From the NCBI GenBank assembly GCA_002162955.1, contig MABD01000037.1, positions 222,031 through 286,030 on the forward strand: a stretch of 64,000 nt of DNA, read 5' to 3'. The stretch comes from Gammaproteobacteria bacterium 45_16_T64 (GTDB taxonomy: Bacteria > Pseudomonadota > Gammaproteobacteria > Pseudomonadales > Ketobacteraceae). How positions within the stretch are numbered: the first letter of the stretch is position 1; each line of letters starts with the position of its first letter. The notes below the pieces were generated by a model. That model had not been told where the DNA came from. It saw only the letters and a program-made list of their open reading frames with translations, and ran no database searches. This document shows positions 14,337 through 59,941 of this stretch, piece after piece. Made by a program: the position numbers and the translations under genes.

Positions 14337-14360
14337 TTCTTAACACAGTACTCTTTCTCT

Positions 14361-20795: not shown

Positions 20796-20808
20796 GGTAA
20801 TACCCTTG

Positions 20809-21234: not shown

Positions 21235-21241
21235 ATTCACC

Positions 21242-21640: not shown

Positions 21641-21658
21641 TTTCCCATATAAAACGAA

Positions 21659-23607: not shown

Positions 23608-24693
23608 ATGGAACAATATGAGCAAATCATGTCTATTGAGGCGGTGATTCCCTTTGTCTTTGGTTATACACTGCACGGCGTATTCGCCGGGATTCAGATC
23701 GGCTTCGCCAGCGTCCTATTGCTCTCCTGCGGCATCAACTTATTCTCCGACAAAGATATCGCTTGGCTACGTTTTGTTGGCATCACAACGAATATATCCT
23801 TACCCTCTCGGCGTTCAATTGCGTTGTTTCAATTGACGGCAAGCTCTCTTCTTCTGCTGCCGCTTTTCTTTGAGACGCCCTTTCTATTAACGGTGGCGAT
23901 ATTTATCGCAATCGCCACGTTCTATTTCATCTATCCACGATTACCACGCCATAGCTCGAATCCATTAAGCTATTTCATCTGCTATGCAGCCGTTTTACTT
24001 AGTTTGCTCGCGGCAGGTATGACAGGGTACGAGGAGCGCTCGCCATTACTCTCGATGGTCGATATCGCACAAGATATAACAACCTTCCGGCCTCAAGAGC
24101 AGGCATGGCAAAACAAACACGATGTGGATGCACCAAAAGTGGGAGATTCCGCCCCTAACTTTTCCTTACCCTCATCCAATGGCTCTTCGTCTTATTCTCT
24201 GGATGAAATACGCAGTGATAAGCTCACAGTGCTGTTTCTCGGGGCCAATAGCTGCCCAGTCTTTAGTGCTGGTATGGAAGACATGAATCGCCTGTATTCG
24301 AAATACAATGAACAGGTTAACTTTCTCGGCGTTTATGTTAGCGAACCCCATGCAGTCGACGAATGGCCCCTAGCGAGAACTCATATGCTCAAATTCATCA
24401 CCTCGTCATCGGCACATCCAGTTGCGATTGACCTAAAACAACAAGCAACATTTGCCGATCGCCACTGGGCAGCTTCACGGTTTAAGAACACCTTGCTCAA
24501 CAAGAACATCCCACTATTGGTTGACCGAATGGACAATGCAATCAACAACACATGGGTTGGTCGTCCAGCAAGGCTTTACCTCATCAGCCAATCCGGTGAA
24601 ATACTCTACAACCCAGGAAAAGGTCCCTATAGTTTTAACCCATCTCACCTGGAACCTATTATTGACCAGTACCTGTCAAAGCAACATTTATGA
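23608..24693 (+). CDS. Iodothyronine-deiodinase-like thioredoxin-fold protein with an N-terminal 4-TM membrane domain. Cys sits at the position of deiodinase Sec.
   Basis: LTVLFLGANSCPVF ... YSKYNEQVNFLGVYVSEPHAVDEW parallels the deiodinase core (LVLNFGSCT-U-PPF ... YIDEAHPSDGW). Confidence 0.55.
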   Translation: MEQYEQIMSIEAVIPFVFGYTLHGVFAGIQIGFASVLLLSCGINLFSDKDIAWLRFVGITTNISLPSRRSIALFQLTASSLLLLPLFFETPFLLTVAIFIAIATFYFIYPRLPRHSSNPLSYFICYAAVLLSLLAAGMTGYEERSPLLSMVDIAQDITTFRPQEQAWQNKHDVDAPKVGDSAPNFSLPSSNGSSSYSLDEIRSDKLTVLFLGANSCPVFSAGMEDMNRLYSKYNEQVNFLGVYVSEPHAVDEWPLARTHMLKFITSSSAHPVAIDLKQQATFADRHWAASRFKNTLLNKNIPLLVDRMDNAINNTWVGRPARLYLISQSGEILYNPGKGPYSFNPSHLEPIIDQYLSKQHL

Positions 24694-43918: not shown

Positions 43919-45511
43919 TCAAAAATGTGTCAAAAAACTCATCTCAAATAAATACGCTGTCACACTCGTCGTCACGTCATACCCCGCATAAGGGTTGTAA
44001 ATAAGGTCCGATGGATCTTCGCTATTTACATTAGAACTACTCCCGCTGGGGATATCCACATCGGACTGCAACATACCAACGCCAACATCCATCAACGTAT
44101 CTTTATCCCATTGATAAGAAAATCCAAAACCCACTAAATATGCAGCCCCAAAAGGTGCCAATAGATCCGCCTTGTCGGTAGGGATTGCGCTGGGTCGGTC
44201 CTCATAACCCGCTCGCAATGCCAAGCGATCACTCCATTCATACTCAACACCAAGCGCCCAACTCCACGTGCTTTCGTAGCCCCTTGGAAACGTGATGCTT
44301 CGCGCAGAAACATGTTCTTTATCCAACAAACTCAATATCGCCAAAAAATCCACATCGGTATCAAACTCAATTTTAAACTCTTCCCACGCAGCTGTATCGG
44401 TCCATTTTGCATCAACATTTACCTTAATACGCGGAAGTACTTGCAGGCTAATTCCTGTCGAAAAATGGGCAGGAATAGTAAAATCTAAAGTAGCACCACC
44501 CTCATCAACTGGCACTCCCTTCGGAATTGGCAATCCGGCAACGAAAAATCCGGCAACCGTATCTGGACTACCTAGACCTTGAAAAAAATCGACCCATTTC
44601 TCTTCGTAAGTAAATTCGAACTCCCCCTTTAACTGCGCTTTAGCTTCACTTTGATACACCGCCCCCCAGCTAAACCATGGAACAGGCTCCCAGAGAAAAC
44701 CGATGTTGATTGACGGATTAAACCCTTCTTCTACTTCCAGATATAGATTGCCAATAGAATCAAATGGACCAATATTGCCGTCACATAAATTAATAAATAC
44801 ATTCGCCGCTAAACCAGCATCATCGGTTTCACAAGAGTTATTTAACGTATCAAGCGCCGCTAAAATAGGTAACGGCACCCGCATATCAAGATCCAACCCC
44901 ACCCCTGTATAGCTGAAAATAATACCCGCCCCAACGGAAAATGTATCCGTCACTTTGAACCCTAGAGACGGTGTAAAATACGATAAATGGGTAAAGCCCA
45001 ATGCGTTGCCATGGTATCGCGCATTGCTCTCATCCTCTCGCGTAAAGCCAACAATCATTGGGGCGTACACTGCATTTGCAAAGGTCAACCTATTGTCTGG
45101 ACTGGATATCGAGATCCCGCCTAACGGCGCAAGCAAAACAGGCAATTCTGTGAGGCCAAAAAAAGGCAACATAACAGAAACCGTTCCCGCAATGGCCTCT
45201 CCCTCTTCGATGGTTTCTTCAAGGCCGTATTGATCGATCACATCGTTAATAAAATCTGTTCTTTCGATCTCGCTTGCAATCGTAAATTGCCCAGCGACGA
45301 TTTTAAGGTTGCGCTGCCTGCCTTTTAGCCGCGTTAAACCGGCTGGATTAAAATGGATCGCATCAATACCGGGTGGATCAGCAGTAACAGCATTGGCCAG
45401 GGCTAACGCTTTTGCGTTGCCAATCGTTAAGTTCTGAGCAAGTTGGCCAAAAGATGAGGCCGAGAGCGTCATACTTACCCCAAGGAATATCCATTTCATT
45501 AGGCTTTTCAT
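43919..45511 (-). CDS. FadL/TodX-family outer-membrane hydrophobic-compound transporter (copy 1).
   Basis: Signal peptide, an N-terminal hatch (LAQNLTIGNAKALALANAVTADPPGIDAIHFNPAGL), beta-strand-rich sequence and a C-terminal aromatic residue (…THF). Confidence 0.75.
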   Translation of the reverse strand: MKSLMKWIFLGVSMTLSASSFGQLAQNLTIGNAKALALANAVTADPPGIDAIHFNPAGLTRLKGRQRNLKIVAGQFTIASEIERTDFINDVIDQYGLEETIEEGEAIAGTVSVMLPFFGLTELPVLLAPLGGISISSPDNRLTFANAVYAPMIVGFTREDESNARYHGNALGFTHLSYFTPSLGFKVTDTFSVGAGIIFSYTGVGLDLDMRVPLPILAALDTLNNSCETDDAGLAANVFINLCDGNIGPFDSIGNLYLEVEEGFNPSINIGFLWEPVPWFSWGAVYQSEAKAQLKGEFEFTYEEKWVDFFQGLGSPDTVAGFFVAGLPIPKGVPVDEGGATLDFTIPAHFSTGISLQVLPRIKVNVDAKWTDTAAWEEFKIEFDTDVDFLAILSLLDKEHVSARSITFPRGYESTWSWALGVEYEWSDRLALRAGYEDRPSAIPTDKADLLAPFGAAYLVGFGFSYQWDKDTLMDVGVGMLQSDVDIPSGSSSNVNSEDPSDLIYNPYAGYDVTTSVTAYLFEMSFLTHF

Positions 45512-45721
45512 GATTTCCACTTTTATTATTATGGTTTTTTGTATTACTTCAGCAGCAATAGCGCAATGCCATTGTCAAAGCACAGGACAAATGCCAAAAG
45601 GCGTCATGATTGCAAAAGCAACCTGACAACAATATAAAACAGTCGTTTGTTTTGATAAAGGCATAAATTTTAGAAGCTAGTCTATTCGGACTAATTTCTT
45701 ACTATGAATAGAGAAATGGAC

Positions 45722-47126: not shown

Positions 47127-47747
47127 ATGTTACCTCACCCTAACCACTCATATCGTATCCCCCTGCCTACCGAAGAGGTGGTATACGAAATCAAGAAGAG
47201 CCGCTTTATCGCTAGAGTTGGCAATATTTCCAATAAGGCCGCGGCAAAGATATTTCTCGACCAATCGAAGCAGGACTATCCTGACGCAAGACACCATTGC
47301 TGGGCGTACCAATTTGGCCCACCTCAATCTCCTATCAGCGCAGCGATGTCAGATGATGGCGAACCCAGCGGTACCGCAGGTAAACCTATCCTGAATGTAC
47401 TTCAACACAAGGATATTGGGGATATCATGATAGTGATTATCCGATATTTTGGTGGGATTAAGCTGGGTGCAGGCGGACTAGTAAGGGCTTATTCTAGCGC
47501 CACGCAATTGGCTATTGACCATCTGCCGACAGAATTAAGAATTGCCAAAACTCGTGTGAACATTCACTGTGATTTCGGCCAGGAACAGCCAGTTCGACAT
47601 CGCCTAGCGCAATGCGACGCTAGCGATATTTCCGCGGAATATCTCGAACAGGTCACCTTGGTCGCGGACTTACCCCAGACAAGCATCCCTCAATTCATCC
47701 TTCAGTGCGAACCTCTTGGGGTCATTATCACACTACCTGAGACATAA
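47127..47747 (+). CDS. yigZ: IMPACT/YigZ family protein.
   Basis: HHCWAY and DDGEPSGTAG conserved motifs. 206 aa. Confidence 0.75.
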   Translation: MLPHPNHSYRIPLPTEEVVYEIKKSRFIARVGNISNKAAAKIFLDQSKQDYPDARHHCWAYQFGPPQSPISAAMSDDGEPSGTAGKPILNVLQHKDIGDIMIVIIRYFGGIKLGAGGLVRAYSSATQLAIDHLPTELRIAKTRVNIHCDFGQEQPVRHRLAQCDASDISAEYLEQVTLVADLPQTSIPQFILQCEPLGVIITLPET

Positions 47748-48051
47748 TATTCGTTCCTTCCAATAGATCTTCCAACTCCAACATCTCAACATCGGTAAGC
47801 AACGCATGGTATTCACGTAAAAGCGCGTGCACCTCTTTTAAAGCGGGAGGCTCTTTCTCACATAGCAATAAGACAGTCTCGATATCTTGCAGCGCTTTCA
47901 ATTCCTCTTCCAGCCCCGTTTCTAGCACACCTAACAACTCAACCAATCCAATATCCAAGTCAGCCAACACCCCATCAGACACAGCACGCACCAGGCATGC
48001 AATAAAGGGCAGCAACCTATCTGAGACGCTATGTTGCACTAGCACTCTCAT
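47728..48051 (-). CDS. Hypothetical acidic helical protein, last gene of the minus-strand operon.
   Basis: 107 aa, Leu/Glu-rich, no motif. Overlaps the upstream gene by 23 nt. Confidence 0.3.
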   Translation of the reverse strand: MRVLVQHSVSDRLLPFIACLVRAVSDGVLADLDIGLVELLGVLETGLEEELKALQDIETVLLLCEKEPPALKEVHALLREYHALLTDVEMLELEDLLEGTNIMSQVV

Positions 48052-48568
48052 CTGACTTAGAGAGCACTAAACCATCGTCTAACAAAGACTTCATATAAGA
48101 GTGTGATTTCTCAAGACGACCTTTGATAGTCCACAAGAAGAACGGCTGCACAAATAAACGAGAGATAATACCCTTATTACCAATCGTCACACTGTAGTGA
48201 AATTCCGTTTTATTCTCATCAATTGCACGCATTTCGTAATTCCAATGAGGCTGTAGATTTAAGATATCCGTGGTCATAACAAAGCGCTTATTCGGTTCAA
48301 ATACCAAACACTCTTCAGGTTTCTTTAGGTTAAACAAGCGAAAAGGCATAGCCATTGTTCTAAAATACCGCTTACCCAACCACAAACCGTAACCTTCATA
48401 ACCTGGTTGAGCGACAACCCGCCGACATCCATCCATCCAAACTGAAGCGTTTTCAAACGTGTGGCCTAAATAATAAAACACCTCGTTAACGGGTCGGTGA
48501 ATAATTAATTTGTGTCCATATATTTTTCTCATATCACTCTCCTTACATATCTCAAATTTTTCTTGCAC
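48029..48568 (-). CDS. SRPBCC (polyketide-cyclase/Bet v1-like) family protein.
   Basis: About 165 aa beta-grip-like pattern. The start is probably MRKIYGHK. Confidence 0.4.
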   Translation of the reverse strand: MQEKFEICKESDMRKIYGHKLIIHRPVNEVFYYLGHTFENASVWMDGCRRVVAQPGYEGYGLWLGKRYFRTMAMPFRLFNLKKPEECLVFEPNKRFVMTTDILNLQPHWNYEMRAIDENKTEFHYSVTIGNKGIISRLFVQPFFLWTIKGRLEKSHSYMKSLLDDGLVLSKSDESASAT

Positions 48569-48628
48569 CCCTACCCTTTCATCTCATGAGAAGTCATAAG
48601 ACTCGGTAAGAAACTAATAACAACGTTT

Positions 48629-49591
48629 CTACAAGCATGCTTGATAACGAAAGGGTTGTTCCGCAGCGTCCGACCCAGAACGTTCTTTAACACTGCCGTT
48701 ATGGTTCAGGTGTGTAACATTAGGCCGTCTGAAATATTCGACCGCGTAATCTATAAATGAACGTACCTTTCCAGGAGCTCCCTGATTGGAAGAATAGACG
48801 GCGTACACGTCCCTTATAGGAAATACTGTTTCCAATGGAATTTCAATCAATCTGCCAGCTCGAATATCATCCATCACCATATAGTCAGGTAAAAATCCGA
48901 CACCGATACCTGCAATTACAGATTTCCTAATACCGCCCAGATTATTGACTGTCATCACTTCATTTCGAAAGCTCTTTTCGACCATGCCCATTGAACGCAT
49001 AAAAGAGCGAATAATATCTTTGTCATTGATGAGTACAATATCCTGATCCAACGCATCTACTGCATTCACGATATTGTGCTGCCGATGAAATTCTGGGGAG
49101 GCGCACATCAACACCCGATATCCTGACAACCTCCTAGCCAACAAATTACTATCTTTAAGCTGCCCTTCTCTGATCGCAATGTCGATTCCATTCTTAACAA
49201 TATCCTCTGTTTTCCCTGTAAGGGTAAGTTCGATCTTAATATCGGGATACTTTTTCTTAAAGCCCGCGATAATATCAATCATATGGTATTCACCAAATCC
49301 AGGCGTCGATGTTAACCTCAAGGTTCCAGTAGGCGTATGCTGAAAACGACTAATCTCACTCTCTATTTCACGACGTTTTTGTATCATTGAGCACGCTTTT
49401 TCATAGCAAAACGTTCCAGAGTCGGTCAGAGCTAATGATCGCGTAGTTCTGGCAAATAGCTGGACACCGAGCTTTTTCTCAAGTCGACTAATTTGTTTAC
49501 TCACAGCAGATGAAGTGAAACCCATTTTTTTGGCCGCTGAGGAAAAACTGCCACTTTCTGCAACCGTGATAAATACTTCATAAATATCCAT
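48629..49591 (-). CDS. LysR-family transcriptional regulator.
   Basis: N-terminal HTH FSSAAKKMGFTSSAVSKQISRLEKKLGVQLFARTTRSL plus a substrate-binding domain. 320 aa. Confidence 0.85.
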   Translation of the reverse strand: MDIYEVFITVAESGSFSSAAKKMGFTSSAVSKQISRLEKKLGVQLFARTTRSLALTDSGTFCYEKACSMIQKRREIESEISRFQHTPTGTLRLTSTPGFGEYHMIDIIAGFKKKYPDIKIELTLTGKTEDIVKNGIDIAIREGQLKDSNLLARRLSGYRVLMCASPEFHRQHNIVNAVDALDQDIVLINDKDIIRSFMRSMGMVEKSFRNEVMTVNNLGGIRKSVIAGIGVGFLPDYMVMDDIRAGRLIEIPLETVFPIRDVYAVYSSNQGAPGKVRSFIDYAVEYFRRPNVTHLNHNGSVKERSGSDAAEQPFRYQACL

Positions 49592-49638
49592 TGTTCTCGA
49601 CCTCTACGTAGGGTTGATAATTAGACTAATCTCATGAA

Positions 49639-50475
49639 TTATACGAATCCAAATAGACGTTTATTTTTGGTTTTAGTGAAGAACTTCGTGATTCTAAAAA
49701 ATATCATTATCATCGCAGGTTCGTAATCTACCAGCCCCTCTTGAAAACTTCTACGCTCTTTAGACCGCTCGTACCAAGCAAGAATATTGGGATAACCTGT
49801 CAACGGAAAACCCATCAAATCTAAACGATGAATATTTACCATCCAAGCTACATCTGCCAATGAAAATCCACTGTCTACCATCCACTCTTGATTAGTCAAA
49901 CAAGCTTCCAACAAGCGGCATTTTCCGTGCATGCTATCAATCGCTTCCTGCACCTCCGATACCGTAAACTCGTTATTAGCGAATCGACGTTTAAATTTAA
50001 CCAATTCACTATTACCGTGCTGATCACTGAATTTTTTCAATGTCATCTTTACGATAAAGCGTTGTGGCTTTGCAAGAAAATAATGCGTTAATAGTTTGAT
50101 TTCTGACTGAACACCATCTGCCAGTTCGATAATGGCATTCATTGAATCTAGTGCCTCAATATCTTTCGGTTGTAACGGGCTGGTTGTATCCATGCTTTCC
50201 AAGTAGCGAATAATATCCACAGATTCTGTCACTATATTCCCATTATCACTCAAGACTGGAACCAATCCTTTAGGGTTTATTTTCTGGAACCATTCTTTTG
50301 AATGCTCGTTCAACAACAAATTAACGGGGCGACTACGCCAATCGATTCCCTTTTCAATCAAACATATTCTTACCCTCTGCGAACAGTTGCTAAAATCAAA
50401 ATGAAAGAGATGCACCCCGTGCTGTATCTCATCAAAAATTTGGCTTTGATCGTTTAATGAAAGAGTCTTAAACAT
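49639..50475 (-). CDS. Glutathione S-transferase with an N-terminal S-x-C motif, a candidate thiol-dependent reductive dehalogenase or isomerase.
   Basis: GST N-domain HLFHFDFSNCSQRVRICLIEKGIDW...INPKGLVPVL...TESVDIIRYLE. Paralogous to both halves of the next gene. Confidence 0.6.
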   Translation of the reverse strand: MFKTLSLNDQSQIFDEIQHGVHLFHFDFSNCSQRVRICLIEKGIDWRSRPVNLLLNEHSKEWFQKINPKGLVPVLSDNGNIVTESVDIIRYLESMDTTSPLQPKDIEALDSMNAIIELADGVQSEIKLLTHYFLAKPQRFIVKMTLKKFSDQHGNSELVKFKRRFANNEFTVSEVQEAIDSMHGKCRLLEACLTNQEWMVDSGFSLADVAWMVNIHRLDLMGFPLTGYPNILAWYERSKERRSFQEGLVDYEPAMIMIFFRITKFFTKTKNKRLFGFV

Positions 50476-50540
50476 AACTTCTGCCTTATCTATCGGAATC
50501 TGATTATTGTTTCATTTATCGTAGAGTAATCGTCATAGAA

Positions 50541-52184
50541 TCATGCAGATTCAGCCTTCGATTTTCGCTTTTTTCTTACGCTTTTTTTCTTATCTTGACC
50601 TTTTACGTGTAGAGAGATACTTTTCATCCATTCGGAAATACCGTCTAATGAATTGATACACTCATCTATGCCTAGCTCAGAAAATGACGCAAGTCTTGTA
50701 AACAATAATAGATCGGCATAGGTTACCCGATCAGTAACAAGAAAATCTCTGTCCGATAGCTGATCATTCAAATAGCGCATCTTCTCAGACAATATTTCAA
50801 GGCAACGTGACCTTTCCAAAGAACTCAGATTTTCACCATTAATGTGGGCAAAGAAAATTGGCCGATACTCCTTTCTCATTCCCATATCAAATGCATTCCA
50901 CATTCTTATACTCGCCTGTTCCTGGCTATCTTTGGAGAAATATTCATGCTTAATCGAGCGAGTAGATTTTGCATAGTGACACAGATATTCAGCGATAAAT
51001 AATGAATCGTGTACAACCGTATCTCCATGTAGAAGCAAGGGCAATTCGCTGGATGGATTCAAATATTTATAGGGTGGCTTAGTATGCTCCATACTCTTCA
51101 TATCGATCTCAATATGTGAGTATTCAACATCCAATAATCGACACAATGTCACGACACGATCGCTTACCGGGGATCCAGTATATCCATAAAACATCAGCGG
51201 TTCCTTTAATGTAGAATCATCTATTTTCAACGCCCTCGATTTTGCCGATAAATCAGCATCCTGTGGAGAGGATTCCAAAAACTCCATTTTCCTCTTATTT
51301 TTTATCAACAGAGATTCACTTATTTTTAGTTTATTTCGTAAAATTGGCTTAAGTGCCTTAACGCACAGCCTATCCATCATTGATAGCTCAGAACGTTTAT
51401 ACAGAATACGGTTGATTAGTTTAGTTATACCCATATCGGATAGCTTCTTCATGCTTTTTTCCGACTCGGTATACGTCATTCTGATAGATCGTCTCTGGCT
51501 AATCCGCTCTATCCAAGCAGTGACATTAGGGTAGGTATACTTATTGATTTTAATGCCGATCAAGGGGATCATCGTTAGCCTTGGATATACCGATACGTCA
51601 GCTGAACCAAATCGCTCATCAATGAGGTATGTTCTGTTTTCCAATCTGCGCTCGACCAAATCAACAAACTGGGCCAGTTTCTTTTGATGCTCCGCCTGCT
51701 CTTCCAAAGTAAGTACTTTTAGATCCCATACTTTTTCTTGCCACGCAAGGTACGCGCCGTTATCTGTGGCCTGAGCAGAAATCTCAAGAAACTCTTGCTT
51801 TGTACACGCCAAATGGTGAAGCGGCCCCATAAATCGAGAATACATAAGCGGGCGATAGACATTCGCCATGGCAAGCTCGTAGTTCTCCCATTTTTTCGCT
51901 TCAATCTTGCCCGCCACCGTGGCGGGAATAATCGTCACTTTAGGGAAAAGGTCTTCGATATAATCGTTTATTACAGACGATTCAAAAATCACTTTACCGT
52001 TATGGCTTAGTGCAGGAACCAATCCATTCGGATTTATCTCCAGGTATTCGGGACTTTTTTGCTCCATCTTTGACAAATTGACTATTTGCGTTCGAAAGGG
52101 GATTCCTTTTTCAATCAGAAATATCTTTACTCGTCTAGCGCAAGGAGATCCCTCATAATCATATAATACGATATCATGCTTCAT
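50541..52184 (-). CDS. Tandem GST-GST fusion protein (two complete GST modules in 547 aa).
   Basis: Module 1 is VLYDYEGSPCARRVKIFLIEKGIPF...NPNGLVPAL...ESSVINDYIE. Module 2 is MFYGYTGSPVSDRVVTLCRLLDVEY...ELPLLLHGDTVVHDSLFIAEYL. Each has its own helical C-domain. Confidence 0.65.
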   Translation of the reverse strand: MKHDIVLYDYEGSPCARRVKIFLIEKGIPFRTQIVNLSKMEQKSPEYLEINPNGLVPALSHNGKVIFESSVINDYIEDLFPKVTIIPATVAGKIEAKKWENYELAMANVYRPLMYSRFMGPLHHLACTKQEFLEISAQATDNGAYLAWQEKVWDLKVLTLEEQAEHQKKLAQFVDLVERRLENRTYLIDERFGSADVSVYPRLTMIPLIGIKINKYTYPNVTAWIERISQRRSIRMTYTESEKSMKKLSDMGITKLINRILYKRSELSMMDRLCVKALKPILRNKLKISESLLIKNKRKMEFLESSPQDADLSAKSRALKIDDSTLKEPLMFYGYTGSPVSDRVVTLCRLLDVEYSHIEIDMKSMEHTKPPYKYLNPSSELPLLLHGDTVVHDSLFIAEYLCHYAKSTRSIKHEYFSKDSQEQASIRMWNAFDMGMRKEYRPIFFAHINGENLSSLERSRCLEILSEKMRYLNDQLSDRDFLVTDRVTYADLLLFTRLASFSELGIDECINSLDGISEWMKSISLHVKGQDKKKSVRKKRKSKAESA

Positions 52185-52211
52185 TTATTTACCCTCACTC
52201 AATTAGTATTA

Positions 52212-53903
52212 CTACGCTAAGCTCAGTTTTATTTTTTGCCCGACCTCTAGAGAAGACAAATATTTTCCAACCGCGCTATCGAATCGTTCTGGGCTTTCGC
52301 ATACTACAATCATTTTATCGGGGCGAATTAGCACACATTTTTTCCCGCTATCAAATTTGTCTCGATAATATCCATCCACATCCCAAACCACAGTTTCACC
52401 GGTTTTACGGGATATTTCTTCCACTCGAGATAAGTCATGGCCGCCTTTTATCACGCAGTATTCAGAGTCAATTTCTGAAAGTCGGGATTTGGTATCGTCG
52501 CTTAAATTTGATTGCGCACTTTTCTCGTAACTAATCACTGCAAAATTTCCAGAAAGGCAATCATCAATAAGCGAAGATTGTTTATCCACGCCACCCGTTT
52601 TTGCAACAAATCTAGTCTCTACTATAGATTGAAGAAATTCATAACCCACGGTTAATTCCGACACATCACCTAGCCCAAGCATCAGTGACCGCATACCAAG
52701 AATACTATTTGGTGTTTTTTTGATGCTTGCAACATCACTCCTTCCACTAATCCTATTTAACGTACGAAACACAACATTTCTAACTTTAGAAAACCATTTG
52801 CTCTGGGGTAATACAAGCATTCCCATGGCGCGGGCAGTATTGACGATAATAACCGCTTGAGGTCTACGTTCTGAATGATACGTATCCAACACCCTATCAG
52901 ACAAAGTACCTTTTAATACTTGCGCCAATTTCCAGCTGATATTGTATGAATCTCGCAAACCAGCCATCAAACCCTGCCCCGCAAATGGCGGCGTTAAATG
53001 GGCTGCATCACCCAGAAGAAAAACATTACCGACTCGAAATTTTTTCGCTATTCTAGCGTGAAAGGTATAAATGGTTTTTCGAATGACATTCATCTCTGAC
53101 ACATCACCCCAGGGCTTAAGTAATTCCTTAACCGCAGCATCCGACGATATATACTCGTTAGATTCATCGTTCTTTACCACGAATTCCCATCGACGTGTGT
53201 TATTTGGCGTAGGCAGCGTGACGCCCGGGCGGTTGGGATCACACATAAAATAGACCAAATCCCGATCGTTAGTTTTCCCCTCTTTATGCTGATTATGGGT
53301 ATGTACTGAAGGATCATTTTCAACATCCAAAATCAACCAATCCTGCGCATAGGTATGACCAGTAAATCCAACGTTCATCATTTTTCTTATGTTACTTCTT
53401 CCGCCATCACACCCTAGTACATAGCGGCAAGAAATAGTACGGTATTCATCACCATTTGTTACCACGCGGCAAAGCACTTCATTACCTCGATCTTCGATTT
53501 GTAAGCATTCTGTGCTTTTCCAAAAATCTACATTGTCGTATCGATCCAACCCATCCCGCATGCATTGCTCTAGCGCCGGTTGGTACAGCGTTCGAAGAAT
53601 AGGAAACCCATTGACTTCCTCAGCACAATCAAAACTAAAAAATGGCTCTAATGATGCACAACGAAATTGAACCTGAGCCGCATCAAGCAATGTTGGCTCG
53701 AAACTCTCCATTAATCCAGCAGCATTGATAATTCTCGAGCCTTCGTTACATAATCCAACCGCTCTAGGGGTTTTCACGATATCGTCCTCTTTGTCGACCA
53801 AGAGGACTTTAACGCCATATTTTCCCAATAGATTAGCGGACAACGCCCCTGCTGGACCGGCACCGACAATCAATACATCATAGATAGAACTTTCGTTGCT
53901 CAT
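52212..53903 (-). CDS. FAD-dependent aromatic-ring monooxygenase (MhpA/PcpB-like phenol hydroxylase family).
   Basis: YDVLIVGAGPAGALSANLLGKYGVKVLLVDKE dinucleotide-binding motif, an FLLGDAAH second FAD motif and a roughly 560 aa two-domain size. Confidence 0.8.
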   Translation of the reverse strand: MSNESSIYDVLIVGAGPAGALSANLLGKYGVKVLLVDKEDDIVKTPRAVGLCNEGSRIINAAGLMESFEPTLLDAAQVQFRCASLEPFFSFDCAEEVNGFPILRTLYQPALEQCMRDGLDRYDNVDFWKSTECLQIEDRGNEVLCRVVTNGDEYRTISCRYVLGCDGGRSNIRKMMNVGFTGHTYAQDWLILDVENDPSVHTHNQHKEGKTNDRDLVYFMCDPNRPGVTLPTPNNTRRWEFVVKNDESNEYISSDAAVKELLKPWGDVSEMNVIRKTIYTFHARIAKKFRVGNVFLLGDAAHLTPPFAGQGLMAGLRDSYNISWKLAQVLKGTLSDRVLDTYHSERRPQAVIIVNTARAMGMLVLPQSKWFSKVRNVVFRTLNRISGRSDVASIKKTPNSILGMRSLMLGLGDVSELTVGYEFLQSIVETRFVAKTGGVDKQSSLIDDCLSGNFAVISYEKSAQSNLSDDTKSRLSEIDSEYCVIKGGHDLSRVEEISRKTGETVVWDVDGYYRDKFDSGKKCVLIRPDKMIVVCESPERFDSAVGKYLSSLEVGQKIKLSLA

Positions 53904-53916
53904 GTCTTATCCCCTT

Positions 53917-54879
53917 CTATACTACGCGATTTTCTTGTGTACCAAGATCAACAACACCATCCAAACTACGTATAGTTGCCCTAACTACATCTCCAGCGTT
54001 TAAGTATTGTGACCGACGCCCTTGTGTCTTCTTGAACATTTTCCACTTAGTTTTTTCTGGTAATAGGGCACCAATTTTTGTCACAAGGGGAGACGGTATG
54101 CGGAGAGCACAACCAGCAGGGGTTCCCGTGAGCACAAGGTCACCAACTCTCATGTCGCTAACTTGTGAAAGCTCAGTTAATGTTTCATCCGGCTTAAATA
54201 CAAGGTTTCGGGTATTGTCTTGTTGTCTCAGTTCGTCATTTACCGTTAACGTGAGCTCCAGGTCATCCAAGTAACTCAGCTCCTCTTTTGAGAGCAAACA
54301 AAGCACAGGGCCAACAGGACAAAAACTACGATAGCTTTTCCCCTTGAAAAATTGCATTTGAGGTACCTGCACGTCACGTGCAGAAACGTCATTTCCTATC
54401 ACAACTCCCGCGACATAATCTCCAATATTTCGACGTGATATTTTTTCTTCCGACGTAATATTTTTTCCAATAACCAACCCCAATTCGACTTCGTAATCCA
54501 GTAGACTGACATGGTTGGGTTTTATGATATCGTCGGAAGGACCACTGATTGAGGCAGCGGATTTGTTAAAGAACATATTGAAATTTTTGTCATCAGGGTT
54601 CATTCCTGATTCGATCATATGCTCTCTATAATTTGCCCCCTGACACAATACCAAGCAGGGCTTTGTTACTGGAGACAATAACGTAACCTCAAAAAGAGAA
54701 ATTGTGTTCTTCGATTTTTTACTAGGGTCTATCGATAAAGCCTCTTCTTTTCCTTCGTTAAGGAATTCGGCAGTAGATTGATAATCACCTGATAGAGGAA
54801 AGATAGTCTCGCTAAACAATACTCCCCAACCCGTTTGACTTTGATTGTTCTTGCTATATCTCACTACATTACACACCAT
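53917..54879 (-). CDS. Fumarylacetoacetate hydrolase (FAH) family hydrolase.
   Basis: FAH-fold C-terminal core (LDYEVELGLVIGK, GDYVAGVVIGNDVSARD, GDLVLTGTPAG). Confidence 0.7.
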   Translation of the reverse strand: MVCNVVRYSKNNQSQTGWGVLFSETIFPLSGDYQSTAEFLNEGKEEALSIDPSKKSKNTISLFEVTLLSPVTKPCLVLCQGANYREHMIESGMNPDDKNFNMFFNKSAASISGPSDDIIKPNHVSLLDYEVELGLVIGKNITSEEKISRRNIGDYVAGVVIGNDVSARDVQVPQMQFFKGKSYRSFCPVGPVLCLLSKEELSYLDDLELTLTVNDELRQQDNTRNLVFKPDETLTELSQVSDMRVGDLVLTGTPAGCALRIPSPLVTKIGALLPEKTKWKMFKKTQGRRSQYLNAGDVVRATIRSLDGVVDLGTQENRVV

Positions 54880-54909
54880 GACATACTCTCCGATATTTAT
54901 TGCTATACA

Positions 54910-56046
54910 TTAAATGGCTTTTATCATCTTCGCTAAACGTCTGATACTCAGATCATCATTCGAGGGTATGCGCCGCAACACACTCTTGAAGGTATTCCAA
55001 GGACGGTTTAACCCTTTAAACTCCGCTGTCATGTCTGGCCCCCATTGATGTTGCGCCGAGCCATTAAATAGATGGTATCCCGTATTTTTTTCGCGGTTAA
55101 AAAGATCACCATCAGCATAATGTTCAAATAGGTCTCCGTAAGGATCACGCCAATAGTCAAATACCTGACTACCCAGAATGTGTCTTCCAATCCCCCATCC
55201 ATGTTTGTATTGCATCTCCGACGCCCTTTTGGACATCCAGTGACCCGCTACTGCAACCTCTTCAAACGTATCCATTTCAAACGCGGAGTGTATGTGGCCC
55301 AACTCTGGCGTAATACCAAACCCCAACGTATGATGGTCAGTCGGCACCTCCCCCCTATCAACACGCATGAATACAACAATCGGATTTTCGTCACCAGGAA
55401 GGAACTGAAAGTCGGAAACAATAAATCCAAAGGTATCCTGATACCAATGCACTGTTTTTTTAATGTTGGCCACACTATGCAAACTATGGCCTAACTTTCG
55501 AACTGTCACTGGTGAGATGACGTTTCTAACCGATTCATTTTTCCGGGTCTTTTCATCACCGGTATTCCAATTACTCTCACACGGTACTTTATCGATAGGT
55601 AATAATGTCGATAGATTACAATTGACCTCCACCACTAGCCCGTCCGGATCCTTAAGCGATACATATTGGCCACCCATTTGAGTCGGATGTGCCTGGATTG
55701 TTTGATCATAGTGATGAGCAAGACGCTGCACATCACCTTCACTCGCCTTAAGCCCGATGGTCGTCAACGCTTGAGGACCTTTTTCAATAATAATGAGGTG
55801 ATGCTCTGCGCTAACCCCACGTAAATAGATTCTCTTTTCCGTTCTAATATCTAATAGCAGTCCGTAATCCACAAAAAACTTCGCTGCTTTTTCTATGTCA
55901 GGCCGTATAAGCACCAAATAGGCAAGGCCCTCTACCTTCGTCAACGGATCGCTACAACACTCTTTCACCTGGCATTCACGCCGTAGTTTCTCTAGTTCTC
56001 GATTTACTGTGTTTTCAGAGCCCGTCGTCGTCATAAAAGTCACCAT
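54910..56046 (-). CDS. Two-domain VOC-superfamily extradiol-type ring-cleavage dioxygenase (hydroquinone/chlorohydroquinone dioxygenase PcpA/LinE-like).
   Basis: Two glyoxalase/VOC modules (GLAYLVLIRPD...HHLIIIEKG; LGHSLHSVANIKKTVHWYQDTFGF...HTLGFG). 378 aa. Confidence 0.55.
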   Translation of the reverse strand: MVTFMTTTGSENTVNRELEKLRRECQVKECCSDPLTKVEGLAYLVLIRPDIEKAAKFFVDYGLLLDIRTEKRIYLRGVSAEHHLIIIEKGPQALTTIGLKASEGDVQRLAHHYDQTIQAHPTQMGGQYVSLKDPDGLVVEVNCNLSTLLPIDKVPCESNWNTGDEKTRKNESVRNVISPVTVRKLGHSLHSVANIKKTVHWYQDTFGFIVSDFQFLPGDENPIVVFMRVDRGEVPTDHHTLGFGITPELGHIHSAFEMDTFEEVAVAGHWMSKRASEMQYKHGWGIGRHILGSQVFDYWRDPYGDLFEHYADGDLFNREKNTGYHLFNGSAQHQWGPDMTAEFKGLNRPWNTFKSVLRRIPSNDDLSIRRLAKMIKAI

Positions 56047-56072
56047 GCGTTAAGTTGATGAAATCAGCATAA

Positions 56073-56105
56073 CTGAATATAATTCATATTAGAAGATAAT
56101 TCATA
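56073..56105. promoter_or_regulatory. Operator-like motif CTGAATAT-AATTC-ATATTAGAA, with a second ATAATTCATA half-copy, in the divergent promoter between the catabolic operon and the TetR gene.
   Basis: The same motif recurs at 58479..58513 (see findings). Confidence 0.45.
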
Positions 56106-56174
56106 GATAGAATGAGATTCTTTTTTGAGCTATCATCTACCTATTAGTTATATGAATGACCAAAGGATATGTAG

Positions 56175-56858
56175 ATGGACTCCACTGAGGCAGCCGCTAA
56201 ACCCAATAGGACCTCTAGAAGAAAGCAAAAAACCAAAGATAAGCTGTTGAAAGCAATACAAATATTGGTTTTGGAAAGAGGGTTGAACGAGATCTCTATT
56301 AACGACATCACAGAACAGGCCGATGTTGGATTAGGGACGTTTTATAACTATTTCGATTCGAAAGAATCTCTCATTCAGGCCACTAGTGAGCTATTGCTCG
56401 CGTATTACCATCAGGATATTGATGCGGTAACAGAAGGCCTCACCGACCCTGCAGAAATAATGGCCGCCTCAATTATGCATACATTGTCCAAAGCCGTGGA
56501 TGGTACGCAATGGGGGAAATTTATCTTCGAATCAAACGTACCGATAGAAGCTTACGCGATGAATATGCGCATGCGTGGCATGAGGGATATTCGACGCGGT
56601 ATCGACGAAGGCCGGTTCGAAGCCGATGAACCAGAGATAATCCTCAGCATGTTTACCGGTTTTGCACTTGCCGTCGCTGGCGATGTGTACTTTGGCTTCT
56701 TGCCCAAGACAGCCATAGTTAAATCCACCGCAAAGATTCTCACTCTTCTCGGCATAAAAGAAGAAGCAGCCAAAGAAATTGCCCAAAAGAAATACCCGAC
56801 CGTAAAGCCCGTGGAATTACCTATATCTGTATTCGACTTAGAACAAGACGAGGCTTAA
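56175..56858 (+). CDS. TetR-family regulator, divergent from the catabolic operon and convergent with FadL/TodX copy 2.
   Basis: HTH INDITEQADVGLGTFYNYFDSKESL. Confidence 0.8.
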   Translation: MDSTEAAAKPNRTSRRKQKTKDKLLKAIQILVLERGLNEISINDITEQADVGLGTFYNYFDSKESLIQATSELLLAYYHQDIDAVTEGLTDPAEIMAASIMHTLSKAVDGTQWGKFIFESNVPIEAYAMNMRMRGMRDIRRGIDEGRFEADEPEIILSMFTGFALAVAGDVYFGFLPKTAIVKSTAKILTLLGIKEEAAKEIAQKKYPTVKPVELPISVFDLEQDEA

Positions 56859-58408
56859 AACTCAGAGCGATAACTGAGCTCCAACATAACCATGCTGAGC
56901 TCAGTTTTTACATCCAACCCCGCATAAGGGTTATACAAAAAATTATCCGCTCGAGTATCGTTACCATTAGTGCTGCTGCCAACAGGTATATCCTGAACAC
57001 TTTTGGCATACCCCAAAGAAACATCAAAGACCGACGTACTATCCGGTAGATAACTGAAACCGATAGCATATAGATCCATATCGCCAATGGGTAAGAAAAA
57101 ATCACGCTTATCTTCCGGTATACCTGACTTTCTCGGTTCATACCCTACACGCAATGCCAGCACATCCGAATAGGCATATTCAATACCAATCGCCCAATTC
57201 ATACTATTTTCATAGCCCCTAGGGAAAATCAACTTATCCTCCTCAATACCTTCAATAAAGTTACCCATGATGCCTAACATAGGATCAGGTTCATCTAATT
57301 CAAACACTAATTCATCCCATACCGATGTTTCTGTCCATTTAAGATCCACATTAACTTTAATGTCTGGCAACAGCTGCAGGCTCACACCAAGCGCAATATG
57401 TTGGGCCGTTTCTATTTCGGTTGAGCCTTTTGTTTCAATCACTTTTGCTTGCGCAGGAATATCAATAGTCTCGCTAACACCTTCGGTAAAGCCGATCAAT
57501 CCATCGCTGTAGGTCATTACCAGATCACCCTCCACTTTGTCAGTACTGGGGCTCTGCCATACCATACCAACAGTAAACCAAGGAGTAACATCCCATAAAA
57601 AGCCAACATTCATCGTTAATGAAAAAGGGTTGTTCAAATCCATTTGCATATTAATCAGTGTTTCATAGGGGTTAATTTCCCCACCACACACATTGATAGG
57701 TAGCGAGTCGGGATCTTCGTTAGCACAAATTTCATTAAACATGCCCTGTGTTCTAGCTAACCCATAATTCGACGCCCTGAAATCCAAGTCAATCCCAACG
57801 CCCACATAGGAAAAACCGACAGAAACACCCACAGCAAAAGTCTCCGTCATTTGCACACCAATCGATGGGGAAAAATACGTCAGCCGAGTAATCGCCAACT
57901 CTCGCCCAACAAACCGACCAGGGTCATCATCATCACGCGCCATTCCCATCATAAACGGTGCATACACCCCCGTCGCAAACGTCACATTGGAGCCCGGTTT
58001 CTGTACCGAAATTCCACCAAGAGGTGCAACCGTAACCGGCAGCTCCGTAAAACCAGCACCAGGAATATAAGCAGCGAAACTATTAATATCACTTTCGGTA
58101 TTAGCGACCGAATCATAGATTCCTGTCTCTTCCTGAAGCGCATCAAATTCTTCAGTGGAAGTGAATTCTGCCGTTATGCTTGCATCTGCGGCGATAATTT
58201 TTAACTCTCGCTGCCTTCCTTTTAGACGCGCCAAACCCGCAGGGTTAAAATGAATAGAATCAATACCAGGAGGATCTGCAGTAACCGCATGCCCTAGTGC
58301 TAACGCTTTTGGATTTCCTATCATCAAGTTCTGAGCAAGTTGCGCAGTCGCATTTTGACTAAGCAGAACACTAAAAAAACCTAGAAAACACAGAGAAAGG
58401 TACTGCAT
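56855..58408 (-). CDS. FadL/TodX-family outer-membrane transporter (copy 2).
   Basis: Paralog of 43919..45511 (LAQNLMIGNPKALALGHAVTADPPGIDSIHFNPAGLARLKGRQRELKII; C-terminal ...SEF). The ATG at 58408 has an AAGGAG Shine-Dalgarno sequence; the ORF track extends to 58492. Confidence 0.75.
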   Translation of the reverse strand: MQYLSLCFLGFFSVLLSQNATAQLAQNLMIGNPKALALGHAVTADPPGIDSIHFNPAGLARLKGRQRELKIIAADASITAEFTSTEEFDALQEETGIYDSVANTESDINSFAAYIPGAGFTELPVTVAPLGGISVQKPGSNVTFATGVYAPFMMGMARDDDDPGRFVGRELAITRLTYFSPSIGVQMTETFAVGVSVGFSYVGVGIDLDFRASNYGLARTQGMFNEICANEDPDSLPINVCGGEINPYETLINMQMDLNNPFSLTMNVGFLWDVTPWFTVGMVWQSPSTDKVEGDLVMTYSDGLIGFTEGVSETIDIPAQAKVIETKGSTEIETAQHIALGVSLQLLPDIKVNVDLKWTETSVWDELVFELDEPDPMLGIMGNFIEGIEEDKLIFPRGYENSMNWAIGIEYAYSDVLALRVGYEPRKSGIPEDKRDFFLPIGDMDLYAIGFSYLPDSTSVFDVSLGYAKSVQDIPVGSSTNGNDTRADNFLYNPYAGLDVKTELSMVMLELSYRSEF

Positions 58409-58478
58409 GCGTATAGTCTCCTTTATTTTATTCTTATTTGCAGACTTAACACAGCGGACGATAACCAAGACGTCCAAC

Positions 58479-58513
58479 TGAATATTCCTCATATTAGAAT
58501 ATAATTCATATAT
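58479..58513. promoter_or_regulatory. Two tandem copies of the TGAATAT-N5-ATATTAG operator-like motif in the divergent FadL2 / GST-like promoter region.
   Basis: CTGAATAT-TCCTC-ATATTAGAATATAATTCATATATTG read directly. The 3' part is 15/15 identical to 56075..56089. Confidence 0.45.
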
Positions 58514-58825: not shown

Positions 58826-59941
58826 ATGACAAATCAACCACTGCACAGGTTTCAGCTTATCGGTACAGAGTCCTCGTTATTTACCGGGAAGGTACGAGGC
58901 TATCTACGATATAAAAAAATTCCTTTTACCGAACAAATATCATCCCTTCAGGTGTACCGAAAGGTCATCGTGCCGCGAACCGGCAAACAAATGATTCCAG
59001 TGTTACTCACACCCGACGATGAGTGCATTCAAGACACAACGTGCATAATAGATCACTTAGAAAAGGACTACCCTGAGCATTCGGTTTATCCAGAAACCCC
59101 AAAGCAGCGACTCGCATCAATTCTACTCGAGTGTTATGGCGATGAATGGCTGGTAATGCCAGCGATGCACTATCGCTGGCAATTTAAACGTTATAATTTA
59201 CCTTTTATCTTAAAAGAATTTGGCCAAACTGCCATGCCTCAGCTTCCTGGACCACTGCAATACGTCATTGGTAGCATTCCGGCATTTGCTTTTGGTGGGC
59301 GCTATAAACCCTACTTTGGTGTCACCAAAAATATGGAAAGCGCAATAGAAAGCAGCTACGAATCCCTATTAGCCGACCTAGAAACACACTTCTCTCAATA
59401 CCCATACTTGCTTGGTAACCGACCTAGCATCGGCGATTACGGTTTCTTGGGCCCGTTCTATGCGCATCTTTATCGCGACCCCTATCCCAAAAAACTCATG
59501 CAACAGAAGGCCCCCAATGTTCTAAAATGGGTCGAACGCATGCAATTTTCAACCGACGCTCGATACGGTGACTTTCTTGATAATGATGAGATCCCAGAGA
59601 CTCTGTTACCTATTTTGCAACGTATGACTCGTGAGCAATTCCCTGTATTGGAAGATACCGGTATTCGATTGGACAAGTGGACTCTTACTCACCCAGAAAA
59701 ACGCCAGATAAAGCGCATCATTGGCAGCCACACATTTTCTATAGAGGGAGAATCCTCAACACGGGCAGTCACACCCTTTTCGTATTGGATGTTTCAAAGA
59801 GCATTAAAAATATATAACGATGCAACGACTGAGAAGAATAACCTGGATGGATTCTTAAAGGATATACAAGGTGAGAGTGCATTTTTAAATCAGTCGAAGA
59901 CAGTATTGGAATACACAAAATATCGACTTAATGTTGCGTAA
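58826..59941 (+). CDS. GST-N-domain-containing protein (371 aa).
   Basis: Thioredoxin-fold GST N-domain (FQLIGTESSLFTGKVRGYL...IPVLL...DTTCIIDHLE) followed by a long helical region. Confidence 0.45.
   Translation: MTNQPLHRFQLIGTESSLFTGKVRGYLRYKKIPFTEQISSLQVYRKVIVPRTGKQMIPVLLTPDDECIQDTTCIIDHLEKDYPEHSVYPETPKQRLASILLECYGDEWLVMPAMHYRWQFKRYNLPFILKEFGQTAMPQLPGPLQYVIGSIPAFAFGGRYKPYFGVTKNMESAIESSYESLLADLETHFSQYPYLLGNRPSIGDYGFLGPFYAHLYRDPYPKKLMQQKAPNVLKWVERMQFSTDARYGDFLDNDEIPETLLPILQRMTREQFPVLEDTGIRLDKWTLTHPEKRQIKRIIGSHTFSIEGESSTRAVTPFSYWMFQRALKIYNDATTEKNNLDGFLKDIQGESAFLNQSKTVLEYTKYRLNVA

Follow-up and report, generated by a model that had tools for sequence, protein, structure and literature searches.

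Positions 47728–56046 of a 64,000-nucleotide stretch from Gammaproteobacteria bacterium 45_16_T64 (contig MABD01000037.1, positions 222,031 to 286,030; hereafter the window) hold a row of eight open reading frames (ORFs) on the minus strand, which is the subject of this report. From its promoter-proximal end, the row comprises a two-domain VOC protein of the extradiol dioxygenase type, a FAH-superfamily hydrolase, a class-A flavin monooxygenase, a tandem fusion of two glutathione S-transferases (GSTs), a single GST of 278 residues (GST278), a LysR-type regulator, and two small ORFs of 179 and 107 amino acids (Table 1). A TetR regulator is divergent from the VOC gene. An earlier reading of this DNA, made from its letters and a list of reading frames (the sequence-only reading), had taken the row for a lower pathway of the pentachlorophenol (PCP) and gamma-hexachlorocyclohexane (HCH) kind. 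All eight ORFs are present where it had placed them, Pfam and NCBIfam agree with its family-level calls for the first six genes, and domain matches confirm the TetR and FadL/TodX genes that it had seen on both flanks. The gaps of 13 to 65 nt that it reported hold for six junctions (VOC–FAH, 30 nt; FAH–monooxygenase, 13 nt; monooxygenase–tandem GST, 27 nt; tandem GST–GST278, 65 nt; GST278–LysR, 47 nt; LysR–179-aa ORF, 60 nt), but at the last junction there is no gap and the two small ORFs overlap by 23 nt. Promoter and terminator scans returned fewer sites than shuffled controls, so the case for co-transcription comes from spacing and synteny, on which basis the row is presumed to form a single transcript.

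The first three genes and the divergent regulator are the part of this arrangement that recurs elsewhere. The VOC protein belongs to a large, unnamed family, with 3097 clusters at E<1e-5 and members in at least 597 species-level genomes. Among 89 sampled VOC loci, a FAH gene adjoins the VOC gene in 85, a monooxygenase gene lies within 8 kb of it in 78, and a TetR homologue, counted over the same distance and typically divergent at about 100–400 bp upstream of VOC, is present in 65. Members span Gammaproteobacteria, Actinobacteria, Myxococcota and other groups, including Streptomyces, Mycobacterium and Pseudomonas, and a TetR_C_40 regulator stands divergent from VOC–FAH–FAD monooxygenase in a marine gammaproteobacterium, Fluviicoccus, a Polyangiales metagenome-assembled genome and Mycolicibacterium rhodesiae. 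A divergent TetR gene with VOC, FAH and monooxygenase is a conserved, widespread and little-studied module. Other genes of the region are found far less often near VOC: GSTs in 7 of the 89 loci, all of them marine gammaproteobacteria, LysR in 6, and FadL in 5. Because GSTs are missing from about 92% of the sampled loci, including those of Actinobacteria (which use mycothiol in place of glutathione), they are add-ons and not core; the GST, LysR and SRPBCC genes are additions specific to a marine gammaproteobacterial lineage. In about 28 loci the FAH gene is followed by an acyl-CoA ligase of about 630–660 aa, and in Pseudomonas loci a FadL gene, unrelated to that of the window, comes after this ligase, with an OYE reductase close by.

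By sequence, the VOC protein is a classical extradiol enzyme of the MhqB family with a His-His-Glu site in the C-terminal domain. In an alignment of 30 family members, H187, H238/H239, H253, H289, Y298 and E308 are invariant, all within the C-terminal domain, and they align with the metal ligands and the second-sphere His/His/Tyr of BphC, homoprotocatechuate 2,3-dioxygenase (HPCD) and the structure 3b59. This is the pattern of a classical type I two-domain extradiol dioxygenase, and no histidine of the N-terminal domain is invariant in the 30 members. Pfam and NCBIfam give PF00903 together with weak HpaD and catechol 2,3-dioxygenase matches. Against all of the Protein Data Bank (PDB), the sequence itself finds weak matches only, to 3b59, which was deposited without an assigned function, and to HPCD, while a profile built from the alignment ranks 3b59 first (2.7e-21, 79 bits), followed by HPCD, BphC, HsaC and XylE. 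An AlphaFold2 (AF2) model (pLDDT 89) has 3b59, LapB, XylE, HPCD and AphC as its nearest Foldseek neighbours. The related proteins with an experimental context are two from Burkholderia. The VOC protein encoded beside mhqA in YI23 is 32% identical over 311 aa (E=8e-51; 266 bits with the family profile) and shares the family-specific motif WGxGRHxLGSQVFDYW...EH, and MhqB of SFA1 (BSFA1_83710) is 27% identical (E=1.7e-26; profile 133 bits).

The sequence-only reading had likened this dioxygenase to PcpA and LinE, the hydroquinone dioxygenases of the PCP and HCH pathways, and that identity is ruled out. For direct comparison, linD, linE and linR were taken from the Sphingobium plasmid pCHQ1. LinE is reached by BLASTP at E=7.9 and by the family profile at 0.4 bits, as against the 266 and 133 bits of the MhqB-type proteins, and PcpA is neither among the PDB matches at E<=1, by sequence or by profile, nor in the top 50 of Foldseek. 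In PcpA the first metal-binding histidine (His11) sits in the N-terminal domain, whereas the candidate ligands here, H187, H253 and E308, are C-terminal. Intact catechol-type residues in the VOC protein were, moreover, what that reading had itself named as grounds for giving it up.

The Burkholderia relatives belong to the Mhq clusters of fenitrothion degraders, which are known from NF100 (mhqAB), from plasmid 2 of SFA1, with genes for a FAH-family protein (BSFA1_83730), MhqA (83720), MhqB (83710) and a hydrolase (83700), and from plasmid byi_3p of YI23, where genes for MhqA, a VOC dioxygenase and a FAH-family protein are accompanied by those for a thiolase and an acyl-CoA ligase. Their route has been drawn as methylhydroquinone to trihydroxytoluene to 2,4,6-trioxoheptanoate, with reference to Tago (2005) and to the orcinol pathway of Chapman and Ribbons (PMC8571283). 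In SFA1, MhqB is induced by fenitrothion, and the expression table of the 2021 study includes the hydrolase along with mhqA and mhqB; BSFA1_83730 and the hydrolase 83700 have been proposed there for the last two, still undetermined steps, and Burkholderia homologues support growth on fenitrothion (PMC8571283). The window shares with these clusters the grouping of a class-A monooxygenase, a two-domain VOC dioxygenase of the same family and a FAH protein, the last 29–36% identical. It differs from them in its monooxygenase, which is MhpA-like and not MhqA/TfdB-like; in its TetR_C_40 regulator, where the Mhq clusters have GntR or LysR; and in its VOC protein, which has a longer N-terminus and a C-terminal extension reaching about 35 residues past the alignment. 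The Mhq clusters, for their part, are plasmid-borne, come from Betaproteobacteria, and carry no GSTs, SRPBCC or FadL of the window type. The orcinol/resorcinol pathway of Pseudomonas putida has the same proposed chemistry but was defined biochemically, and no gene assignments for it were found in the literature (Chapman and Ribbons, 1976, cited in PMC8571283).

The label MhqB itself needs some care. Identity between SFA1 mhqB and the YI23 ‘MhqB’ is only 22%, which means that two paralogous lineages go by this name. SFA1 encodes a further dioxygenase on plasmid p4 (locus L090, 9004–9948); it shares 47% identity with the YI23 VOC protein, and its neighbourhood includes a GST gene, an additional FAH-family gene and two genes for gentisate 1,2-dioxygenase. 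Homologues of the window VOC protein at 34–37% identity also occur on plasmids of actinobacteria of clinical origin, namely Prescottella equi human isolates (H7 and H8) and Mycobacterium riyadhense (H19).

The FAH protein matches PF01557 over the whole profile (181 bits). Its best NCBIfam model is 2,4-didehydro-3-deoxy-L-rhamnonate hydrolase (134 bits, under the cut-off), and its PDB relatives include diketo-rhamnonate hydrolase, maleylpyruvate hydrolase and the acylpyruvase FAHD1. It is 36% identical to the FAH protein of the YI23 mhq cluster and 29% to the SFA1 counterpart; its DYEVELG and NDVSARD blocks, which we take to be the metal-binding acidic site, align with the YI23 protein. The best solved relative, 8SKY, is Bacillus subtilis YisK, an oxaloacetate decarboxylase, and is uninformative on specificity. 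In Pseudomonas jessenii (L041, 11133–12254) the FAH homologue starts with MSGNSTRYGRRDVLKAGAVIAGGSL, an apparent twin-arginine (Tat) signal, which would suggest a periplasmic location for the Pseudomonas version. The monooxygenase matches PF01494 (216 bits) and has MhpA-type models as its nearest curated ones, staying under both cut-offs (NF004831, 428 vs 546; NF004829, 378 vs 390), and its similarity to MhqA (25–27% identity) is that of a generic relative. MhpA hydroxylates a meta-substituted phenol between the hydroxyl group and the side chain, as orcinol hydroxylase does. With the dioxygenase and the FAH protein related to their Mhq counterparts and the monooxygenase only generically so, the core is, as far as homology can tell, a variant of the Mhq/orcinol scheme in which another hydroxylase is used.

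In the orcinol pathway, a flavin hydroxylase forms 2,3,5-trihydroxytoluene, ring cleavage gives 2,4,6-trioxoheptanoate, and beta-diketone hydrolases complete the degradation. We propose, at what we judge to be an even chance, that the operon serves the TetR-repressed catabolism of a hydrophobic dihydroxybenzene through extradiol cleavage of a benzenetriol and hydrolysis by the FAH protein. The substrate may be an alkyl- or prenyl-hydroquinone or a (5-alkyl)resorcinol, possibly halogenated, and would enter through the adjacent FadL/TodX channel. The MhpA-like monooxygenase would hydroxylate this dihydroxybenzene to a substituted 1,2,4-benzenetriol, which the MhqB-family dioxygenase, holding Fe or Mn through H187, H253 and E308, would cleave beside the vicinal diol. 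Owing to the third hydroxyl group on the ring, the cleavage product would tautomerise to a 2,4,6-trioxo acid. Such an acid is a beta-diketone, the type of substrate on which FAH-fold hydrolases act. The FAH protein, which best matches 2,4-diketo-acid hydrolases and acylpyruvases, may hydrolyse a C–C bond of the beta-diketo acid to give pyruvate and a 3-oxo acid, or an acylpyruvate and a carboxylic acid, for central metabolism or beta-oxidation. The recurrent acyl-CoA ligase, the YI23 thiolase and the FadL channels together suggest a lipophilic side chain that is released as a (3-oxo) fatty acid and recovered as acyl-CoA. The GSTs most likely handle quinol/quinone thiol chemistry, be it reduction, deglutathionylation, isomerisation or dehalogenation. 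Observed directly are which genes are present, their homologies, the conserved catalytic residues and the conservation of the module; the substrate class, the regiochemistry, the FAH reaction, the roles of the regulators and every role given to a GST are inferred.

Several points weigh against this proposal. Identity to the Mhq dioxygenases is only 27–32%, the monooxygenase is no orthologue of MhqA, and the conserved catechol-type residues of the VOC protein cannot tell catechols from benzenetriols. GST278-type genes lie beside FAH in two genomes, which hints at an isomerase–hydrolase couple that the triketo-acid route does not need. Operon status has spacing as its only support. No acyl-CoA ligase, Zn-ADH/quinone oxidoreductase (QOR) or SDR partner was found in the window at the thresholds used, and acyl-CoA ligase, quinone reductase and thiolase are all absent near the operon there. 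In the literature we found no assayed member of the exact module, and searches on VOC+FAH+GST+TetR clusters, on maleylacetone or methylhydroquinone cleavage, and on alkylresorcinol catabolism genes yielded nothing directly relevant beyond the Mhq papers. The sorgoleone srg cluster was considered as an explanation and rejected.

Table 1. Features of the operon, its flanks and the distal genes discussed in the text (window coordinates).
Feature	Position	Strand	Size and domains	Remarks
VOC dioxygenase, MhqB-family two-domain extradiol	54910..56046	-	378 aa; PF00903	
FAH-superfamily C–C hydrolase	53917..54879	-	320 aa; PF01557	proposed 2,4-diketo-acid (trioxo-acid / acylpyruvate) hydrolase
Class-A FAD monooxygenase, MhpA-like	52212..53903	-	563 aa; PF01494	proposed benzenetriol-forming hydroxylase
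Tandem GST–GST fusion	50541..52184	-	547 aa; two full GST_N + GST_C pairs	
GST278, zeta / GDAP1 / LinD-like GST	49639..50475	-	278 aa; GST_N + GST_C	
LysR-type regulator	48629..49591	-	HTH_1 + LysR_substrate	same strand, within the gene row
Probable SRPBCC / Bet v1-like small-ligand-binding protein	48029..48532	-	167 aa from M13	listed 179-aa ORF starts at 48568
Orphan ORF, doubtful gene	47728..48051	-	107 aa	no family match
Divergent TetR regulator	56175..56858	+	TetR_N + TetR_C_40	probable operon repressor
Divergent promoter/operator region	56047..56174	.		repeated ATAATTCATA box
FadL/TodX outer-membrane channel	56855..58492	-	PF03349, 164 bits	proposed hydrophobic-substrate uptake
Second FadL/TodX channel, other flank	43919..45520	-	PF03349, 209 bits	association uncertain
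Second TetR	45722-46336			
GST371, long Ser-type GST-like protein	58826..59941	+	GST_N_3 + GST_C_2	island accessory
GST304, GST_N_3 protein	22617..23531	-	PF13417	24 kb from operon
Deiodinase-like thiol oxidoreductase, membrane-anchored	23608..24693	+	PF00837, 86 bits	divergent from GST304

The sequence-only reading had noted a Ser-x-Cys motif in two of the three GST modules of the row, and the motif is real and kept in orthologues: module 1 of the tandem protein carries S13-P-C15 (SPC[AS]RRVKI, in 6 orthologues) and GST278 carries S29-N-C31-S-Q-R-V-R (S[NY]CSQRVRI across orthologues). Module 2 has no cysteine in the window lineage, having lost it. Module 1 has as its best PDB match the beta-etherase LigF, over its full length (E=1.4e-18), and module 2 has weak matches to tau and delta GSTs. 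Only about 22 full-length clusters make up the unnamed family of tandem proteins, and since these share contigs with VOC homologues, the fusion looks specific to the module. GST278 matches GDAP1 (1e-20), zeta GSTs (4e-16 to 7e-13), LigF (2e-14) and NagL (1e-9). The Lig beta-etherase system of Sphingobium (LigD/F/E/G) likewise has several GSTs, and SDR genes like those found in related islands; the similarity to it is low, however, and the window has neither a Lig-type operon context nor an SDR. In L002 (Gammaproteobacteria bacterium 42_54_T18), the closest named relative, the tandem GST is represented by two annotated genes, encoding 332 and 218 aa (13946–15633), and by tblastn module 2 starts right where the first GST gene ends, be it a real split or a frameshift.

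One alternative is a route in the style of the gentisate and homogentisate pathways, in which the monooxygenase makes a para-hydroquinone, the VOC protein cleaves between a hydroxylated and a substituted carbon, GST278 isomerises the resulting maleyl-ketone or maleyl-aldehyde to the fumaryl product with glutathione, and the FAH protein releases fumarate and a ketone or aldehyde. Those pathways, too, have a flavin hydroxylase and a ring-cleavage dioxygenase followed by a zeta-like GST and a FAH hydrolase, and pairs of maiA with FAH are a known arrangement (hits H71, H79 and H80). GST278 has the zeta motif SNCSQRVRI and matches maleylacetoacetate isomerase, maleylpyruvate isomerase and zeta GSTs. 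In Maricurvus (L004), where the order is VOC–FAH–GST and no monooxygenase is present, and in L096, a GST278-type gene adjoins FAH, which speaks for the isomerase–hydrolase idea; by its name, Maricurvus nonylphenolicus degrades nonylphenol, a compound whose breakdown often runs via hydroquinone. On the other hand, GSTs are absent from 82 of the 89 loci, three fully annotated loci lack any thiol-dependent isomerase, and in the close relatives L007 and L012 the tandem GST occurs without an orthologue of GST278. Neither GST278 (80.5 bits) nor the tandem GST (95.8 bits, two modules summed) reaches the maiA cut-off of 171 (TIGR01262). The window dioxygenase is, furthermore, a VOC protein and not a cupin; it keeps a catechol-type second sphere and shows no relationship to the known VOC hydroquinone dioxygenase LinE. 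We regard this route as unlikely.

Somewhat less probable still is an ordinary meta-cleavage of alkylcatechols, running from a 3-alkylphenol through a 3-alkylcatechol to a 2-hydroxy-6-oxo-dienoate, with the FAH-fold protein serving as a hydratase, isomerase or decarboxylase like MhpD, XylI or HpaG. The best curated matches of the operon are indeed MhpA, HpaD and catechol 2,3-dioxygenase, alkylcatechol dioxygenases (LapB and AphC) are among the structural neighbours, and the FAH protein matches HpaG domains. But its best matches are diketo-acid hydrolases and not hydratases, the closest characterised context is Mhq and no catechol pathway, and the module never occurs with the cleavage-product hydrolase or dehydrogenase, the aldolase and the acetaldehyde dehydrogenase that such pathways need. 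We hold it to be about equally improbable that the genes form a quinone or electrophile detoxification regulon, with a role like that of Bacillus Mhq/YodB, in which TetR and LysR sense quinones while GSTs, dioxygenase and hydrolase destroy quinols. The GST-rich island and its two regulators would suit such a role, and so would the lineage-variable accessories, which are all quinone-reductase-like (OYE in Pseudomonas, NmrA in Bermanella, Zn-ADH/QOR in 8 loci); the proposed enzyme chain is nevertheless complete down to central metabolites, the partner genes for CoA ligase, thiolase and FadL indicate assimilation of carbon, and the fenitrothion growth of the Burkholderia homologues speaks for it as well.

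A PCP/HCH-like lower pathway for halogenated hydroquinones, with PcpB-like, PcpC/LinD-like, PcpA/LinE-type and LinR/PcpR-type members, is highly improbable, for although it too combines a VOC-superfamily dioxygenase, a GST and a LysR regulator acting on quinol-type substrates, and although a deiodinase-like gene and extra GSTs are linked to the island, the VOC protein lacks both similarity to LinE and a conserved N-domain His for that metal site, the LysR protein gives no BLASTP alignment with LinR at E<=10, maleylacetate reductase, on which the PCP and HCH lower pathways depend, is absent with FAH coupled in its place, and soil Actinobacteria and Pseudomonas retain the core without GSTs. GST278 and module 1 have the Ser-x-Cys of the PcpC/LinD-type dehalogenases, and GST278 shares the motif S-x-C-S-Q-[KR]-V-R with LinD (FSNCSQRVR and FSVCSQKVR, respectively; GSPCARRVK in module 1), but its overall similarity to LinD is weak (24% identity over 294 aa, E=1.8e-9) and is exceeded by its scores against GDAP1 and zeta GSTs, while the tandem protein reaches LinD only at E=0.018–0.085, module 1 giving the 0.018. 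Zeta GSTs generally have Ser-x-Cys too, so the motif is not diagnostic of PcpC/LinD. What survives of the earlier interpretation is quinol-type catabolism with Cys-GSTs under a divergent TetR, having Mhq and not the PcpA/LinE/LinR system as its nearest experimentally supported relative.

The divergent TetR is the probable repressor of the operon. The intergenic region between TetR and VOC is conserved to a far greater degree than the flanking proteins, with 53 invariant columns in comparison with L002, L010 and L011, whose proteins are about 65% identical; it contains inverted repeats and, twice as a direct repeat, the box ATAATTCATA, a candidate operator. The LysR protein has the HTH_1 and LysR_substrate domains of its family and same-position orthologues at 62% identity in L002 and L011; the LinR/PcpR type assigned to it earlier is not borne out. 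The 179-aa ORF, which probably starts at M13 (position 48532), has no Pfam or NCBIfam match even at E<=10 and five homologue clusters, one of which, 53% identical, is named SRPBCC by NCBI. An AF2 model from an alignment of 5 sequences is of low confidence (pLDDT 58), and its top Foldseek matches are weak but all SRPBCC/START (E about 6e-3, TM 0.25–0.44). From the name of this homologue and the weak fold matches, the protein is a probable SRPBCC/Bet v1-like protein; it is 82–83% identical in L002 and L011. The eighth gene, described earlier as a small helical protein, could not be substantiated. The 107-aa ORF has no family match at E<=10 and no tblastn homologue in any related locus at E<=1, and besides the SRPBCC gene it overlaps the convergent UPF0029 gene by 20 nt. 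It was also compared with the SDR gene that relatives have at that position, and the idea that it is a remnant of this gene was dropped for want of similarity.

Of the two channels, the FadL/TodX gene next to TetR has same-position orthologues in L002, L010, L011 and L007, and the one on the other flank is separated from the operon by TetR, HxlR and UPF0029 genes. In the relatives L002, L011 and L097, LysR or TetR has a Zn-ADH/quinone-oxidoreductase-type gene (ADH_N_2) as its neighbour, and the SRPBCC gene is followed by an SDR gene; the window has neither (region 48568–48629 compared) and so looks like a reduced version of the island.

The sequence-only reading had linked the operon with a deiodinase-like gene and further GST genes at a distance under a common halogen and thiol theme. 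The three family calls (T4_deiodinase-like and two GST-like) are correct, and other genomes have orthologues of these genes in physical linkage with the module. In L096 and L097, the SRPBCC gene has a TonB receptor gene on one side and a GST304-type gene on the other, in an island that also has VOC, FAH, monooxygenase, tandem GST, TetR_C_40 and Zn-ADH. GST304 orthologues (44–64% identity) lie directly upstream of VOC in L012 and beside the SRPBCC gene in L096 and L097, and occur in L034 as well. GST371 is 45% identical to a GST that adjoins an SDR gene in L007, and 30–35% identical to an L012 protein and to the GST408-type proteins of L096/L098. Both L096 and L098 have SDR, GST408-type, acyltransferase and deiodinase genes in this order, and GST371 is of that GST type. 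The deiodinase-like protein consists of a membrane anchor and a catalytic domain; it exceeds the PF00837 cut-off (86 bits vs 27) while falling short of NF038285 (deiodinase_rel, 124 vs 250), matches the catalytic domains of Dio3 (E=2.9e-13) and Dio2 (1e-11), and has Cys216 (GANSCPVF) at the Sec/Cys position. A copy at 35% identity lies inside the L096 island. A metagenome scan for its relatives gave one good locus only, L098, so that the deiodinase association stands on two loci outside the window. By comparative genomics, the distal deiodinase-like gene, the GSTs and the SRPBCC gene can thus be joined into a single island, and because GST304 and GST371 types bridge the deiodinase-like gene and the module, the halogen/thiol theme gains comparative support, although not proof. 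A bolder version would make the marine module the back end of a hitherto undescribed thiol-dependent halophenol or haloquinol island, in which the Cys-GSTs (tandem module 1 and GST278) and the deiodinase homologue reductively strip Br, I or Cl from halogenated quinols or phenolic lipids of natural marine origin, the SRPBCC protein and FadL/TonB deliver the substrate, and hydroxylation, MhqB-type cleavage and FAH hydrolysis follow. We consider this version unlikely.

The operon is best read as a variant of the Mhq/orcinol-type meta-cleavage of benzenetriols with an unusual marine accretion of GST, SRPBCC and deiodinase genes. For all its wide distribution, the module has no member with a demonstrated substrate, and studies of its relatives have been confined to the Burkholderia mhq clusters. 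If the FAH protein is a trioxo-acid hydrolase, genes would be at hand for the second half of the 50-year-old orcinol pathway, and the common blank annotation of a “VOC family protein” beside a “FAH family protein” would be explained. The marine variant represents a natural extension of the pathway, with up to five GST types, a near-module-exclusive fusion GST, an SRPBCC protein and a deiodinase homologue around the same core. Should these accessories act on halogenated marine phenolics, they would have a bearing on organohalogen turnover in the sea, and a dehalogenating island would provide the first physiological role for bacterial deiodinase homologues and for the module-specific tandem GST fusion. 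Otherwise, this is one further aromatic catabolic operon.

Some minor features accompany the distal genes. A PlsC/DAGAT-type acyltransferase recurs near the module or the deiodinase-like gene (L008, 17570–18406; L015; L096, 15672–16499; L098, 1509–2336), which hints at a lipid-like substrate or product. In the window, the small islet formed by the divergent GST304/deiodinase pair is flanked by curli secretion genes (CsgG, CsgF and a curlin repeat protein) and a gene for a 1254-aa RHS-repeat protein (19704–22111 and 25707–29471), and a 339-aa ORF at 24760–25779 has no family match. A few kb from the deiodinase-like gene, at 29631–30473 on the minus strand, lies a gene for an AhpC/TSA-Redoxin protein that is extended by about 120 aa at its N-terminus, a second thiol enzyme of the thioredoxin fold.

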